DNA of 32,000 bases from Dehalococcoidia bacterium (GCA_965261815.1 CBDHDR010000002.1:1223820-1255819), one strand, 5' to 3'; shown: positions 6,927 through 31,760, numbered from the stretch's first letter. A program made the numbers and translations. Notes: generated by a model from the letters alone, not told the origin.

Positions 6927-7382
6927 ATGACCGAGCAGTCCGCAGTCACAGACGCGATGCGCCGGGCCGTCGGCGTGGAGAGCGAGCCGAAGACGCACCC
7001 GGTCGAGGCGTACGCGGTCCGGAAGTTCGCCGACGCGATCGGCGACCCGCGTCCCGCGTACCGCGGCGATGCGTCGGCCGCAGCCGTCGCCCCGCCGACC
7101 TTCCTGAGATCGTTGGACGCGGGCCCAGCCGCCGCAGACTTCGAGAGCCCCTACCCTGACCTGCTCGACGGCGGCAGCGAGTGGGAGTACTTCCGGCCGG
7201 TCCGCGCCGGCGACAGGATCACCGTGACCCAGACGCTGGTCGACATCGCCGAGAAGTCGGGCCGGCTCGGGCCGATGCTCCTCACGACCTGGCAGACCCG
7301 GTACGTCGACGACGGCGGCGCCACTGTCGCCACCCAGCGCAACACACTGGTCTACTACCGCGCCGAGCGGAACGGCACGTGA
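6927..7382 (+). CDS. MaoC-like/FAS1-like dehydratase N-terminal-type hotdog subunit
   Basis: 151 aa. YAVRKFADAIGDP...PPTF...GDRITV pattern as in HadA-like non-catalytic hotdog subunits. Immediately precedes its partner gene. Confidence 0.7.
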   Translation: MTEQSAVTDAMRRAVGVESEPKTHPVEAYAVRKFADAIGDPRPAYRGDASAAAVAPPTFLRSLDAGPAAADFESPYPDLLDGGSEWEYFRPVRAGDRITVTQTLVDIAEKSGRLGPMLLTTWQTRYVDDGGATVATQRNTLVYYRAERNGT

Positions 7383-7387
7383 CGTCG

Positions 7388-7852
7388 ATGGAGGAGGAAG
7401 TCGGCTTTCAGCGGCCCATGACCGATCAGCTTCACTACGACGACGTGGCGGAGGGCGACGCGCTCCCCGCGCTGGAGAAGACGCCCACGACGCGGCAGCT
7501 CGTTATGTACGCGGGCGCGTCCGGCGACTACTACGAGATCCACTACGATCAGGACTACGCGCGGTCGCTCGGGCTGCCGGGCGTCATCGTCCACGGCGCC
7601 CTGAAGTCCGCGTTCCTGGCGCAGCTCGTTACCGACTGGATGGGCGAGCGCGGTGCGTTGAAGCGCCTCAGCGTGCAGTACCGCGGCATGGACATGGTCG
7701 GCCAGTCGATGCGCTGCGCGGGCACCGTCGCCTCCAAGCGCGTAGAGAACGGCGAGCACCTTGTCGAGTGCGACCTCTGGACGGAGAACCCATCCGGCGA
7801 CAAGACCACCCTCGGCTCGGCGCTGGTATCGCTCCCGCCGGACCCGCGGTAG
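7388..7852 (+). CDS. MaoC family (R)-specific enoyl-CoA hydratase/dehydratase hotdog subunit
   Basis: YAGASGDYYEIHYDQDYARSLGLPGVIVHGAL is the MaoC hydratase motif. ATG at 7388. An alternative GTG at 7379 overlaps the upstream stop (GTGA), suggesting translational coupling. Confidence 0.8.
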   Translation: MEEEVGFQRPMTDQLHYDDVAEGDALPALEKTPTTRQLVMYAGASGDYYEIHYDQDYARSLGLPGVIVHGALKSAFLAQLVTDWMGERGALKRLSVQYRGMDMVGQSMRCAGTVASKRVENGEHLVECDLWTENPSGDKTTLGSALVSLPPDPR

Positions 7853-27678: not shown

Positions 27679-27891
27679 GCCGCGCGTGCCTCGGCCTCCG
27701 GCAGCACAGCGAACTCAAGGACGGCTTCGGTGATAGTGGTCAATGGCGTTGCCTATGCCAACATCAGACGTTCGCCTTCGGTCCGCGAATTGGACCGCGG
27801 AGTTCCCCGCGCCGTCTCAATCTGGATTCGCCGTGGGGTGGGGGTAGACCTCCACATTTCGAACGGGTCCAATGCTAATGCTGGCTCCCAG

Positions 27892-30522
27892 CTAGTGGGC
27901 TGAACGAACAAGATTCAAGCAATATTGATTGGCCGGGTCCCGTTCCAACCCAATGTTCGCTATATCGAGCGCCCTGCTAGTGTTGCCAATGTTTCGATAA
28001 AGCCAAGCAAGTCGGGAGCAATCCGTAGCGGTTAGTATATTCAAACGTCGTTCCATCGCCTGACTTGCTCGTTCAATCAGTTCCTGAAGTCCTCCAGACC
28101 ACGCTACTTCAACATTCCGCCTCTTGAGCTCGCTGAGAAGAATGTTTAGGCGATTCGCATTTCTGCTTATCTCTTCCCTGTCGGAAGTTGACAGCAACAT
28201 CGCCTCGCTCAAAGCATGGACCGCTCCAAGCCAGTCTTCCCTCCGTTCGCAAAGCCCCGCAAGTCTCAACCACGCGTCCAGCCGATCAGGTGGAGCTGCG
28301 ACTTCTAAGAAGCTCCTTAGGTAACGTATTGCCCGTTCCATCGCATCGGAAGAGTCGTCGACTTCCATCACCAAGTCTGCGAGTCTAAGATATGCTTTTG
28401 GTACCCTCTCTGCCAAATACTCCAAGACCGGCAAGACTTCGTCCAGCGTCTCTGCCTCCTCGCTTGCGCGTTTTGCTACGGCCTGGACAAGATTATCAAT
28501 CCTCGGTAGCACTCCACGCGCAGCGTCCTCTTGTTTCCCCGCCCCGAATTCCATCAAAAGTTTTCGGTCCTGCTCAATCGCGGCTTTGAACGGGCTCACT
28601 TCCAGCTTCCGCCGTCCGTATTCTGCTGCCGCAAGTGGAACGCCGACAAAAGCCCCCCCTCCTTCCAAAGAGTCTTCAACAAAGCCGACTCGATCCACTA
28701 GAGAATAGCGACTCAGCTCTTCCAATGCGCTAGATACATCAAACCGCTCCGTGCCGGGACGGAGGGATACCGCCTCAACAGCGACCTCTGGCACAAAGAC
28801 TCGCCAGCTGCATAGCAAGAGAAACACTCGCTGTCCAGCAAGGCTCAACGCGCTATATGTTCTTTGGAAAAGAGACCGTAGCAAATCGTCAGACGATGCA
28901 ACAACACGTCTCGGAGCCACCGCTTGTCCTTCTTTGGCAACTGCTCCGAGCAGAATCTTGATAACATATGGATGACCGTCAGATTCTCGAATCAGTGTTT
29001 CCTTGTATGTTGGAGTAAGGAGACTGACAATGCCTAGACGGCTTGCGTGTTCGTCAATAAGCCAATTCGCCTCTTCGTCGGTCATGCCACCTATCTCAAT
29101 ATGGTAGTCGCCAACAAAGCTTCTGAATCGGGTCGTGATCAACACCTTATTGGGTGGCCGAACGTAAGTGTCAACCCATTTGAATGCATCAGAGGGATTC
29201 TGCATGGTTTCGAAATTATCAAGTACAAAGAGAGTCGGCTCTCCCCAAGCGCCTTTTTCTAGGCAGTCCTGGAAGTAGGCCCGTCGATCGAGCTTACCGT
29301 TGGCCGTATGGGCCGCCTCCAGCAGGTCTACTGCGGCATCCGCAATGTTGTCTTCTGTCACAACTCGCGGCGAAACAGGCTTTGGTCCGAATTCAAGGAG
29401 ATCGATGTCTCGAGCACTTATCCAAAGAATGACCTTGTAAGGTGGGGCCTCTTGGCTAACAATTTCACGAATAGCTGAGATGGCGATCGTGGTCTTTCCT
29501 ACACCTCCCGGACCAGTCAACGACACTATAGGATGCTGTTCGAAATTCACCAACTCTTCTCTAACCCGACTCTCTAAGACGTTCCTAGCAATGTGACCAA
29601 TCGGCATCGGAGGAACGTTTGCGAACGTGTTACCAAGGATCTCAAGCTCCGCACTGCCTTCAGTTTCGCTCGAAGGGAGACGCGAAGGAGGGTCTGACCA
29701 CTCCGAGCCATCCTTGATCGTCACGTCGTTTGTTATATACGACAGCGCCTCGAAATGGTTACTTTTGTAATTGCCGTTAGGTAACGCAATATCGCGGATG
29801 TCAGGATCAGAAAACACAAGAGGAGTATGGATAGGACGATCGCAGTAGAAATATACTCCATCCTGTAGCTGAACATTCCTCTCTCTCTTCAGATAGTCGA
29901 AAGGTGACGTGTCGGATAATAGTGGCGATACACGATATTTCCCCGACAGGTTTTGATGAAGATGAACCCAAGGGATTCCAAATATCACCAAGTTGTCGAC
30001 GACAGCACTCAAAGCTTCGGCGAGGCTAGGGCAACATCGGGCACACTGTTCGGTTGTAGGGGCTCCGTGTCCTCGGCTTCTATTTCGGAAGCTAACGCAA
30101 AGATCGAAGAATTGTCGCAATGATACGCGGTTGCTCAACTGAGCCTCAACTCCTATCTCGTTCGCCGCTTGGGCCATATTGGCCACGGCTGCAAACCGCC
30201 AATCTCCGTGACCTACTCTCTGGGTTAAATCTCTCACTAAGTCAAGTGCGTTGCCGCTAAAGAGTTGGCTGGATGGTCCAATCAAAGCAGCATGAAGAGT
30301 CTCAATCCAATTGCCAAACGAGTCAGTCCGAAGTAGTCGATGCTCCAGGGAGTACCGCTGCCGATCTACGTCGTCGCCGACACATGCCACAACTCCAGCT
30401 GTGACTATCTTTGCCAAATATTCGAGTTTTAGGCTCAGAGCGTGGAAGTACGCATGATCGCCATCTTCTTTGTCGAGTGCAACGCGAGTATCCATCCGCT
30501 CGAATAGGAGATTCTGTACCAT
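27892..30522 (-). CDS. STAND (NB-ARC-type) P-loop NTPase with RN-x-x-x-GHG N-terminal module and TPR-like C-terminal region: candidate antiviral NLR/Avs-like protein
   Basis: 876 aa. Walker A LTGPGGVGKTT, Walker B LFVLDNFE, NB-ARC-like KVLITTRF and GHPYVIKIL, winged-helix-like LEELSRYSLVD. N-terminal roughly 330 aa contain CVSFRNRSRGHGAPT. C-terminus is helical-repeat-like (AWLYRNIGNTSRALDIANIGLERDP). Sampled lines about 50% GC. Confidence 0.8.
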   Translation of the reverse strand: MVQNLLFERMDTRVALDKEDGDHAYFHALSLKLEYLAKIVTAGVVACVGDDVDRQRYSLEHRLLRTDSFGNWIETLHAALIGPSSQLFSGNALDLVRDLTQRVGHGDWRFAAVANMAQAANEIGVEAQLSNRVSLRQFFDLCVSFRNRSRGHGAPTTEQCARCCPSLAEALSAVVDNLVIFGIPWVHLHQNLSGKYRVSPLLSDTSPFDYLKRERNVQLQDGVYFYCDRPIHTPLVFSDPDIRDIALPNGNYKSNHFEALSYITNDVTIKDGSEWSDPPSRLPSSETEGSAELEILGNTFANVPPMPIGHIARNVLESRVREELVNFEQHPIVSLTGPGGVGKTTIAISAIREIVSQEAPPYKVILWISARDIDLLEFGPKPVSPRVVTEDNIADAAVDLLEAAHTANGKLDRRAYFQDCLEKGAWGEPTLFVLDNFETMQNPSDAFKWVDTYVRPPNKVLITTRFRSFVGDYHIEIGGMTDEEANWLIDEHASRLGIVSLLTPTYKETLIRESDGHPYVIKILLGAVAKEGQAVAPRRVVASSDDLLRSLFQRTYSALSLAGQRVFLLLCSWRVFVPEVAVEAVSLRPGTERFDVSSALEELSRYSLVDRVGFVEDSLEGGGAFVGVPLAAAEYGRRKLEVSPFKAAIEQDRKLLMEFGAGKQEDAARGVLPRIDNLVQAVAKRASEEAETLDEVLPVLEYLAERVPKAYLRLADLVMEVDDSSDAMERAIRYLRSFLEVAAPPDRLDAWLRLAGLCERREDWLGAVHALSEAMLLSTSDREEISRNANRLNILLSELKRRNVEVAWSGGLQELIERASQAMERRLNILTATDCSRLAWLYRNIGNTSRALDIANIGLERDPANQYCLNLVRSAH

Positions 30523-30702
30523 TTAGGTATTCACCTGTTCGCTTGGTTTTTCCTCAAGCCAAAGCTCCACGGCTTCGCTAATGTGCTCGAGGGCCGCCTC
30601 CTGAGTATCGCCGTGGGCCGTGCAACCTGGGAGCTCGGTCGCTTCGGCAACATATGAGCCGTCCTCGTTACTCCAGTAGATGACCATCTCGTACTTGTGC
30701 AT
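30523..30702 (-). CDS. HicB-like (UPF0150) small antitoxin-fold protein
   Basis: Not in the ORF track (59 aa). Hand translation of the minus strand: MHKYEMVIYWSNEDGSYVAEATELPGCTAHGDTQEAALEHISEAVELWLEEKPSEQVNT. GAAGGGGA RBS. Its TAA (30523-30525) directly abuts the ATG (30522-30520) of the STAND gene. Confidence 0.75.
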   Translation of the reverse strand: MHKYEMVIYWSNEDGSYVAEATELPGCTAHGDTQEAALEHISEAVELWLEEKPSEQVNT

Positions 30703-30733: not shown

Positions 30734-31153
30734 CTAAGGGGCTTCCCAGGGATTTACCAGGTCGACTCCCAGCCCCTCGAAGTCCCGGACATTCCGGGTG
30801 GCGACCGCCAGGTCATGCGCCTTGGCCGTTCCTGCGATGAGTATATCGACAATATCAGGGGGGCGCCCGGACCGGACCGCGTCCGCCCGAAACCGTGCGG
30901 CCCACTCCGCACTGGCCCGGTCGATGGGTAGAATGCGATCCGCGTAGCGCGCGAGCAGACTCAAGATGTCCGCTCGCAGCCGCTCCCGGCGCCTTCCGGG
31001 TGGTGCGAGCTGCAGCCCAAACTCCAACTCATGGACCACCAAGGACGCCAGCCACAGATCGGCCGGTTGGGCCAGAAAGGCAATGACCTGGAGACTGGGC
31101 CGGCTCTTCGTCATCTCCGACACGACGTTCGTGTCGAGGAGAAAACCCCTCAC
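30734..31153 (-). CDS. vapC: type II toxin VapC (PIN-domain ribonuclease)
   Basis: LLDTNVV...HELEFG...DILIAGTA...TRNVRDF: the four acidic PIN positions in the expected order. Overlaps the antitoxin gene by 4 nt. Confidence 0.85.
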   Translation of the reverse strand: MRGFLLDTNVVSEMTKSRPSLQVIAFLAQPADLWLASLVVHELEFGLQLAPPGRRRERLRADILSLLARYADRILPIDRASAEWAARFRADAVRSGRPPDIVDILIAGTAKAHDLAVATRNVRDFEGLGVDLVNPWEAP

Positions 31154-31455
31154 TTGTCTCCCCAGTCGTCATCGTCCCAGTCCGAGAAGGGGACCTCGCG
31201 TCGCGAACTCCGACCGCGCTCGGGGATTTCGAGGTTGGTCCCGCGCGTCATGTTCTTGATGAGCCACTGGCCCAGCGGTTCGCGCGTCGGCGCCTCGCGT
31301 TCCCGCCAGATTTGTTCCGGCACAACCACGAACGGCCGCCTCGTACCGATGCGTTGCGGTCCCTCCGACTCGGCGAGGCGCAGGATTTCGGACAGCCGCG
31401 CCTTCGCCTCGGCGATGGTCCACGCGCCGCGGGAATCGGGGGTTTGGATGGCCAT
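31150..31455 (-). CDS. type II antitoxin, Phd/YefM family (VapB-type partner)
   Basis: 101 aa. WTIAEAKARLSEILRLAE...PFVVVPEQIW. GGAGGGAG RBS. TATAAT on the minus strand at 31484-31489. Acidic C-terminal tail. Confidence 0.8.
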   Translation of the reverse strand: MAIQTPDSRGAWTIAEAKARLSEILRLAESEGPQRIGTRRPFVVVPEQIWREREAPTREPLGQWLIKNMTRGTNLEIPERGRSSRREVPFSDWDDDDWGDK

Positions 31456-31484: not shown

Positions 31485-31760
31485 TTATAGACCAGTTTGG
31501 CAGCCCAGACTGCTGCCGATGTGCGGCACAAGGTCCCGGCGGGTCAGGCCCGCCTGGTCCATCCGAAACTCGATCGCCGCGATTGGGTCCGGTGGGGCGA
31601 TCGGATGGCACCTGTCCTCGTAGTGCTTGACCAGGTCGGAGAGTATGTCCCGCTCGTCACCCTCCGCGGTACCATCCTCTGCCTCGAAGATCTCCCAAAG
31701 CCTGGCCAGCGCCGCCTCGTAGTCGTCCTCGGTGCGGATCGGGTTGATCGTAACCATCAT
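31485..31760 (-). pseudogene. HigA-family antitoxin, apparently truncated within the HTH domain
   Basis: The N-terminal 80 aa match the HigA pattern (I.TEDDYEAALARLWEIFEAEDGT.EGDE...LVKHYEDRCHPIAPPDPIAAIEFRMDQAGLTRRDL). The ORF ends as GSSLGCQTGL instead of continuing through the expected HTH helices. The end coincides with the vapB promoter. Confidence 0.5.

Follow-up and report, generated by a model that had tools for sequence, protein, structure and literature searches.

A STAND NTPase gene inserted into a hicB-like gene of a Dehalococcoidia bacterium and the HEPN question of its N-terminal module

Introduction

Do two genes that abut in a toxin-antitoxin cluster form an evolved defence system, or can such a junction arise in another way? 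This question is raised by a stretch of 32,000 nucleotides from a Dehalococcoidia bacterium (GCA_965261815.1, CBDHDR010000002.1:1223820-1255819), which is referred to as the window in the following. On its minus strand an open reading frame (ORF) of 59 codons, here called hicB', ends with a TAA, and the next three letters are the ATG of an 876 amino acid STAND NTPase. A first-pass annotation had noticed this TAAATG abutment, which is present as described, and had suggested that the HicB-like protein regulates or neutralises a STAND NTPase armed with a HEPN ribonuclease (RNase) module. The comparisons described below point to a different origin of the pair. They indicate that an insert carrying the STAND gene landed inside a pre-existing solo hicB-like gene of 70 codons and cut it at codon 50. 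The 59 amino acid ORF then reads as the first 50 hicB codons continued by nine codons and a stop from the leader of the insert, and a two-gene system as such does not exist on this evidence. The reading favoured overall, which is given a little better than even chances, is a lone, horizontally acquired NLR-like sensor with a HEPN-type effector that was inserted into hicB.

The insertion scar in hicB

The features at the insertion site are the following.

27821-30552, minus strand: low-GC insert of 2,732 bp, consisting of a 30-nt leader with a Shine-Dalgarno sequence, the STAND ORF and a 71-nt tail; its ends were set by alignment to uninterrupted hicB
27892-30522, minus strand: gene of the 876 amino acid STAND NTPase (HEPN-like module, small beta domain, NB-ARC, TPR-like tail)
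30523-30702, minus strand: chimeric ORF hicB', 59 amino acids; its native hicB part is codons 1-50 (30553-30702), and the insert leader supplies codons 51-59 and the stop (30523-30552)
30553-30557, minus strand: left copy of the 5-bp direct repeat TTGAG (target-site duplication or microhomology)
27816-27820, minus strand: right copy of the TTGAG repeat
27753-27815, minus strand: displaced, decayed 3' end of hicB, reading (E)TARGTPRSNSRTEGERLMLA up to a stop, with two compensating frameshifts

Both junctions can be read against hicB genes that were not interrupted. At the left junction TGGC TTGAG is followed by GAAAAACC and at the right junction CCAGA TTGAG is followed by ACGGCGCGG, while uninterrupted hicB genes read TGGCTTGAAACGGCG at the site and the DNA of the uninterrupted site in the loci L065 and L068 is CTTGAAACGG. 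It is this comparison which places the insert at 27821-30552. Beyond its right end, window positions 27745-27820 (minus strand) align in blastn with the 3' end of hicB from L065 and L066, with 78% identity over 79 bp. Translation of this remnant begins with ETAR and ends with GERLMLA before the stop, the two compensating frameshifts falling in its middle. An ORF of 52 amino acids at 27753-27911 (minus strand) is no gene; the displaced hicB remnant, in frame, makes up its C-terminal 21 residues.

The protein encoded by hicB' shows the corresponding break. It matches the Pfam families UPF0150 (E 2.9e-8) and HicB_lk_antitox (E 1.5e-6), both over the gathering score, and its nearest relatives are a family of HicB-like proteins of 70 amino acids, to which it is at most 86% identical across 50 aligned residues. 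These relatives align to residues 1-50 of the query only: the window's protein follows the family through ELWLE at residue 50 and then reads EKPSEQVNT and a stop, while the family continues with TAREFGDPIPEPKGERLMLA to its own stop. The HicB-type ORF of the first-pass annotation is thus found with its exact sequence and its family assignment, but not as a complete HicB/UPF0150 domain, the window's ORF leaving the family at residue 50 of 70. The Shine-Dalgarno sequence of the STAND gene, AGGTGAAT (AGGTGA), sits within the last hicB' codons, and the same sequence precedes the ATG in L001 and L062. Because the end of hicB' consists of insert leader and the hicB 3' end lies beyond the insert, TAAATG is a by-product of the insertion and not an evolved operon junction.

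Base composition marks the same block. The G+C content (GC) of the insert is 0.514 versus 0.65-0.70 in the flanks, and GC at third codon positions is 0.50 in the STAND gene versus 0.76-0.82 in the neighbouring vapBC genes and 0.89 in the downstream methyltransferase gene. The drop in GC had been described as falling exactly on the two genes; it coincides instead with the 2,732-bp insert, and the 150 nt of native hicB (30553-30702) are outside of it with a GC of 0.587, hicB homologues elsewhere having 0.57-0.62. Leader, STAND ORF and tail make up the whole cargo of the insert, with no further gene. DNA similarity to the homologues in L061, L062 and L001 (78-82% identical) extends from the ATG to near the stop, covering the ORF alone, and leader and tail are common only to the loci L060 and L064. 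The ends of the insert were not found at other loci. As the whole window contains no tRNA gene and no Rfam family, there is no obvious integration hotspot or riboregulator near the insert.

The two ORFs also differ in their rates of change. In comparison with L060 the nonsynonymous rate (dN) of hicB' is 0.074 and its ratio to the synonymous rate (dN/dS) 0.6, versus a dN of 0.013 and a dN/dS of 0.16 for the STAND gene, which is under purifying selection. The dN of hicB' is thus about six times that of the STAND gene (from small counts), which fits relaxed constraint on a broken gene. When window positions 30553-30702 are aligned with L060 4821-4970, nine amino acid changes are found in the N-terminal half of hicB', the C-terminal part and the leader being identical.

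Conservation of the pairing

To place the pair among its relatives, 53 loci with members of the STAND family were gathered, 52 of which have more than 250 bp of upstream sequence. A hidden Markov model of the hicB subfamily found hicB directly upstream of the STAND gene in L060 and L064 only, so the adjacency, on which the suggestion of a two-gene module had been built, is absent from 51 of the 53 loci. L060 and L064 agree with the window in the PIN to Methyltransf_28 synteny, in the junctions and in the hicB remnant, which indicates one ancestral event. No called gene is present within 140-580 bp upstream of the homologues in L061 (82% identical), L062 (78%), L002 and L003; the L061 homologue sits between transposases and recombinases, and that of L062 between mnmA and a LigB-family gene. 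No recurring partner gene emerged when about 100 flanking ORFs were compared with Pfam, nor among the upstream and downstream ORFs of about 50 loci.

The 70 amino acid hicB relatives are themselves solo genes without hicA, found in unrelated contexts. In the window a tblastn search with one HicA query gave no hicA-like sequence or remnant, in agreement with the absence of hicA that had been noted before. The idea that the insert displaced a hicA was rejected because the nearest 70 amino acid hicB relatives are solo, and no hicA remnant is there.

In L001, a metagenome-assembled genome of the Dehalococcoidia with an 81% identical homologue, a PaREP1/HEPN gene (L001 3587-3988) stands directly upstream of the STAND gene, and an intact hicB-hicA pair (7013-7467) follows about 400 bp downstream, its HicB being 41% identical to the window's. 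Members of the STAND family seem to land repeatedly in islands rich in toxin-antitoxin genes.

The STAND NTPase and its family

Two parts of the 876 amino acid protein follow the N-terminal module.

28633-29577, minus strand: NB-ARC NTPase with helical and winged-helix parts, residues 316 to about 630 (Pfam, Foldseek)
29491-29514, minus strand: Walker A
29209-29232, minus strand: Walker B
27895-28632, minus strand: TPR-like, all-helical C-terminal repeats, residues 631-876, presumed sensor (structural model, weak Pfam TPR matches, Foldseek)

All the motifs that had been listed for this protein were found, namely GPGGVGKTT (337-345), LFVLDNFE (431-438), KVLITTRF (459-466) and GHPYVIKIL (516-524), together with the TPR-like tail. 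Pfam NB-ARC matches residues 319-531 (E 5.5e-8, 32.8 bits versus a cut-off of 23.5), and weak Pfam TPR matches occur at 835-866. In the family alignments Walker A (GxGGxGKT), Walker B (DNFET), the TTR sensor and GHPY are invariant. The features expected of a STAND protein of the NB-ARC/AP-ATPase clade are present, namely Walker A and B, the sensor-1 hhhTTR and the GxP motif and, after these, the helical and winged-helix domains. An AlphaFold model of the full-length protein (predicted local distance difference test score, pLDDT, 88.9; predicted template modelling score 0.77) retrieved CED-4, Apaf-1, NRC3, Sr35 and Avs3 in Foldseek at E values of 1e-7 to 1e-9, with a template modelling score of at most 0.68 on the target. 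Further matches were the STAND-TPR crystal structure 6mfv, SAMD9, Avs5 and designed consensus TPR proteins. The NTPase belongs to the NB-ARC/AP-ATPase clade of STAND proteins. The predicted layout of N-terminal module, STAND NTPase and TPR-like tail agrees with the resemblance to antiviral STAND and NLR-like proteins that had been pointed out in the first-pass annotation.

The family is large and uniform. Among the candidates examined 1,094 proteins were found at E<=0.001, and the best 120 of these cover 86-100% of the query, are 798-897 amino acids long and 56-97% identical, about 115 of the 120 lying at 56-63%. When the N-terminal 315 residues were used as query, 544 clusters at 50% identity were recovered. 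Most of the relatives listed have 830-930 amino acids, on which ground the architecture is taken to be fixed, and the shorter ones look like fragments. For P0254 and P0140 the variant architectures resemble products of read-through or of chimeric assembly and are uninformative.

Synonymous divergence (dS) between the STAND gene and its counterpart in L060 (5001-7631) is uneven, with 0.03 in codons 1-182, 0 in codons 183-315, 0.10 in codons 316-560 and 0.13 in codons 561-876; it is 0.014-0.027 in the flanking vapBC. This unevenness may reflect allelic recombination in the half of the gene that encodes NTPase and sensor.

The N-terminal module

The following features belong to the N-terminal module.

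29977-30522, minus strand: N-terminal helical domain (HEPN-like), residues 1-182 (AlphaFold2 model)
30409-30423, minus strand: E34-x3-K38 motif in the second helix
30061-30087, minus strand: R146-N147-x4-H152-G153-A154 motif, reaching from the last part of helix 135-150 into the next loop (FRNRSRGHGA at 145-154)
29698-29976, minus strand: small beta-strand domain, residues 183-275, with strands at 185-271 in both models

The module was modelled with AlphaFold2 from 28 diverse sequences (pLDDT 91.4). The model has helices at 5-20 and 22-46, a helical insert at 55-122 and further helices at 135-150, ending with RNRSR, and at 157-177, with H152 located in the loop between the last two. Nine positions of residues 1-182 are invariant in alignment A2, and five of the nine are E34, K38, R146, N147 and H152, which are also invariant in alignments A6 and A10 and down to relatives of 20% identity. 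In the beta domain G222, N249, G250 and S261 are invariant in A2, and the domain is followed by a linker with an invariant LPxSETEG motif.

The signatures of HEPN domains have been described as Rx4-6H with a polar N, D or H right after the arginine and an acidic residue in helix 2 within Ex3[KR]; inserts between helices 2 and 3 are frequent, and the two chains of a dimer jointly build the active sites (Anantharaman et al. 2013, PMC3710099). Both signatures occur in the window's protein, R146-N147 and H152 forming an Rx5H motif with the polar residue and E34 and K38 the Ex3[KR] motif in the second helix (22-46). The predicted order of helices, the place of the insert and the places of the motifs likewise agree with this description. 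One member, P0137, reads RNRVAHGAP (Rx4H), all others RN[KR]x[KR][GA]HGA (Rx5H). The spacer between arginine and histidine varies naturally within the HEPN range.

Hosts and genomic neighbourhoods

Named hosts of the family include Dehalococcoidia, Planctomycetota, Rhodanobacteraceae and a Ralstonia solanacearum megaplasmid. In 20 of 25 loci the flanks exceed the STAND gene in GC by more than 3 points. Horizontal acquisition of the STAND gene is indicated by these sequence data. Some of its neighbours are an MmeI-type restriction-modification gene with UvrD, GmrSD, Mrr, CHAT domains, transposases and recombinases. A phage origin of the gene was considered and is not supported, as no relatives were found in IMG/VR and GenBank phages.

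In L003 (2331-4859; 1-1282) a 60% identical homologue is located directly 3' of an MmeI-type (Type IIG) restriction-modification gene and a UvrD-like helicase, and these surroundings are a typical defence-island setting. A full-length member with 37.5% identity is present in L063 (NC_017575.1, 128250-130820), the megaplasmid of Ralstonia solanacearum Po82, a cultured plant pathogen. Its neighbours there are a GGDEF/MASE4 gene and an rve integrase, and the PLSDB gene table has no entry for it.

Toxin-antitoxin neighbours and expression

Upstream of hicB' the native context continues with a toxin-antitoxin pair.

30734-31455, minus strand: vapBC (Pfam), with the PIN toxin gene vapC at 30734-31153 and the Phd/YefM-like antitoxin gene vapB at 31150-31455; native context

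The first-pass annotation had described an intact vapBC and a decayed higBA here. The vapBC genes are confirmed and a truncated HigA-like antitoxin is encoded by an ORF of 91 amino acids at window positions 31485-31760 (minus strand), but HigB was not detected in the window. The HigA-like ORF is 83% identical to an ORF of 87 amino acids that comes after an intact HigB in L064.

No promoter-like site was found between vapC and the ATG of the STAND gene, and scans for promoters, terminators and RNA structures around the insert remained at chance level. Since the leader comprises only 30 nt and the interval from vapC to the ATG has no promoter-like site, the STAND gene of this genome is probably transcribed by read-through from vapBC-hicB'.

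Weighing of the possible explanations

That hicB' and the STAND gene are an evolved module, in which a HicB-like protein neutralises or regulates a HEPN-armed NTPase, is attractive at first sight. HicB proteins normally neutralise an RNase toxin, the abutting ORFs would permit translational coupling, a hicB is likewise found close to the STAND homologue of L001, and the reading frame of hicB' has remained intact in the window, L060 and L064, which together make up the lineage. The hicB of L001 lies downstream, though, and is paired with its own hicA, and the pairing seen in the window is confined to one syntenic lineage of the 53 loci, homologues of 78-82% identity doing without it. The gene itself is cut at codon 50 of 70 with its 3' end beyond the STAND gene, its new C-terminus is leader and Shine-Dalgarno sequence of the latter, and with a nonsynonymous rate six times higher and a dN/dS of 0.6 versus 0.16 it changes in a different manner. 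The module is therefore largely refuted already, its junction being an insertion scar, and is now considered highly improbable. Several observations also weigh against the favoured reading of a lone NLR-like sensor inserted into hicB. Its insertion part is not helped by a search of the insert for terminal inverted repeats and for a transposase or recombinase, which found none, nor by the fact that no relative with an empty site (vapBC, intact hicB and methyltransferase) was found, and the intactness of hicB' in the lineage means that it might retain some residual role. Its immune part has to accommodate mixed neighbourhoods, some of them plain housekeeping as in L062, the absence of homologues from the phage collections IMG/VR and GenBank phages, and a PADLOC 2.0.0 search of the full protein which gave only P-loop-level matches (E>=6e-4, about 40 residues). 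Its HEPN part has to face searches with 28 diverse members in Pfam, including the Swt1-type model, and in PADLOC, which gave no HEPN match at E<=5; profile searches of the PDB, made with the complete module as well as with just its helical domain, which gave no match; Foldseek, where the best E value was 0.13 in the PDB and 0.2 in BFVD with no HEPN entries among the matches; and hhalign against the PaREP1/HEPN protein, which gave no match.

These searches bear directly on the claim of a HEPN/Abi_C-like module, of which the RNx4H motif has stood, joined by an equally invariant Ex3K motif, and the confirmation by profile or fold (Pfam, PADLOC, PDB, BFVD) has not come. Because the motifs pass and no profile or fold search recognises the domain, a HEPN RNase is not established. 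It is the best reading of the module, plausible and unproven, with the sequence motifs and the model tilting the balance somewhat in its favour. An NLR-like sensor whose 315-residue N-terminal module is some other effector or adaptor, engaged in nucleic-acid or nucleotide chemistry or in partner recruitment and with convergent motifs, appears unlikely, even though it is supported by a confident model (pLDDT 91) for which Foldseek retrieved none of the many HEPN structures of the PDB. None of the 28 members matching a HEPN Pfam family, a helical domain of about nine helices, larger than a minimal HEPN, and the conserved beta domain and LPxSETEG linker that always come after it speak for it as well. 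They have to be set against two HEPN signature motifs that are invariant and lie in predicted helices where HEPN domains have them, and against the natural Rx4H variant with a spacing inside the HEPN range; moreover HEPN families are notorious for escaping detection by sequence, and helical bundles are a weak point of Foldseek. Still less probable is a housekeeping or signalling STAND ATPase without immune function (compare the MalT/AfsR-type regulators and other non-defence clades) that is merely mobile. Conservation over the whole length, with 56-63% identity in about 115 of the best 120 proteins and a fixed length, is unusual and would suit such a role, as would the purifying selection, the several loci among housekeeping genes and the missing PADLOC match, and defence and non-defence STAND clades are interspersed (PMC13581612). 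Against it stand the lack of any DNA-binding or output domain besides the nuclease-like module, named hosts from several phyla, a GC of the gene that is atypical in 20 of 25 loci, and the restriction-modification genes, GmrSD, Mrr, transposases or recombinases that flank some loci.

Under the favoured reading, the lone NLR-like sensor with a HEPN-type effector, the C-terminal TPR-like repeats would bind a foreign protein, probably from a phage, by analogy to Avs and NLR proteins (PMC13581612). The NB-ARC module would then bind ATP and oligomerise, and oligomerisation would draw the N-terminal helical domains together to form composite HEPN sites. Since HEPN active sites form across a dimer, N-terminal domains juxtaposed in this way would switch on RNA cleavage, which would lead to growth arrest, that is abortive infection.

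Comparison with known systems

The pair matches no named defence family, as had been supposed: PADLOC and NCBIfam name neither protein, and Pfam gives NB-ARC/TPR and HicB only. The closest parallel in layout are the Avs proteins (Avs1-5; Avs7-21 of PMC13581612), which like the predicted protein combine an N-terminal effector, a STAND NTPase and a C-terminal TPR-like sensor in one polypeptide and are horizontally mobile. Avs genes are often located near other defence genes, and so are some members of the window protein's family, others lying among housekeeping genes. The Foldseek matches of the NTPase also comprise Avs3 and Avs5. In contrast to Avs, the protein is matched by no Avs model of PADLOC 2.0.0 nor by a bNACHT or other defence model, and its NTPase scores best against the NB-ARC/AP-ATPase clade (CED-4, Apaf-1, plant NLRs). 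Characterised Avs proteins have effectors of the Mrr, Cap4, SIR2 or TIR type, whereas a HEPN-like helical domain and a beta domain are found here, and the presumed sensor is short with about 250 amino acids.

Fusions of an N-terminal HEPN domain to a STAND ATPase and TPR have been listed under the Swt1-like HEPN proteins (Npun_F6454, MED222_16016 and Desac_1927; PMC3710099). Compared by description only, they share with the window's protein the predicted architecture, a HEPN RNase under a STAND switch with TPR, as well as the Rx4-6H motif with polar residue and Ex3[KR]. They differ in that Pfam HEPN models, including the Swt1 type, miss the window's family. With Apaf-1, CED-4 and plant NLRs the protein has in common the core of NTPase, helical and winged-helix domains, which is its best structural match, and the Pfam NB-ARC assignment; unlike these it is encoded by a single bacterial gene, has no CARD, CC or TIR domain, and its repeats are TPR-like and not WD40 or LRR. 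The first 50 residues of the 59 amino acid ORF belong to the fold family of HicAB and of solo UPF0150 HicB proteins. Unlike in HicAB, there is no HicA in the window and the nearest hicB relatives are solo, and the window's copy is disrupted and without its last 20 residues.

Fusions of HEPN, STAND and TPR having been predicted in 2013, and hundreds of STAND clades having been catalogued since, the 876 amino acid protein belongs to a large uncharacterised NLR-like family of a kind that was already predicted. A bolder proposal is that the family of about 870 amino acids comprises uncatalogued single-gene immune sensors in which the 315-residue N-terminal module is a new effector, a derived HEPN or a new fold without structural relative, switched by NB-ARC oligomerisation; this is regarded as tentative and rather doubtful, if somewhat less so than the rival explanations weighed above.

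Significance

At this locus a resident operon has taken up a single defence-type gene, and the two halves of the gene broken by it can still be seen. Operon-like junctions in defence islands thus need a check of their conservation before they are called systems. The family that surfaced in this way is large and widely transferred, has no model in PADLOC 2.0, and contains an N-terminal module without a Pfam model. No characterised RNA-targeting NLR-like example was found in the literature searched. Should the N-terminal module prove to be a HEPN RNase, the family would provide candidate RNA-targeting NLR-like sensors.

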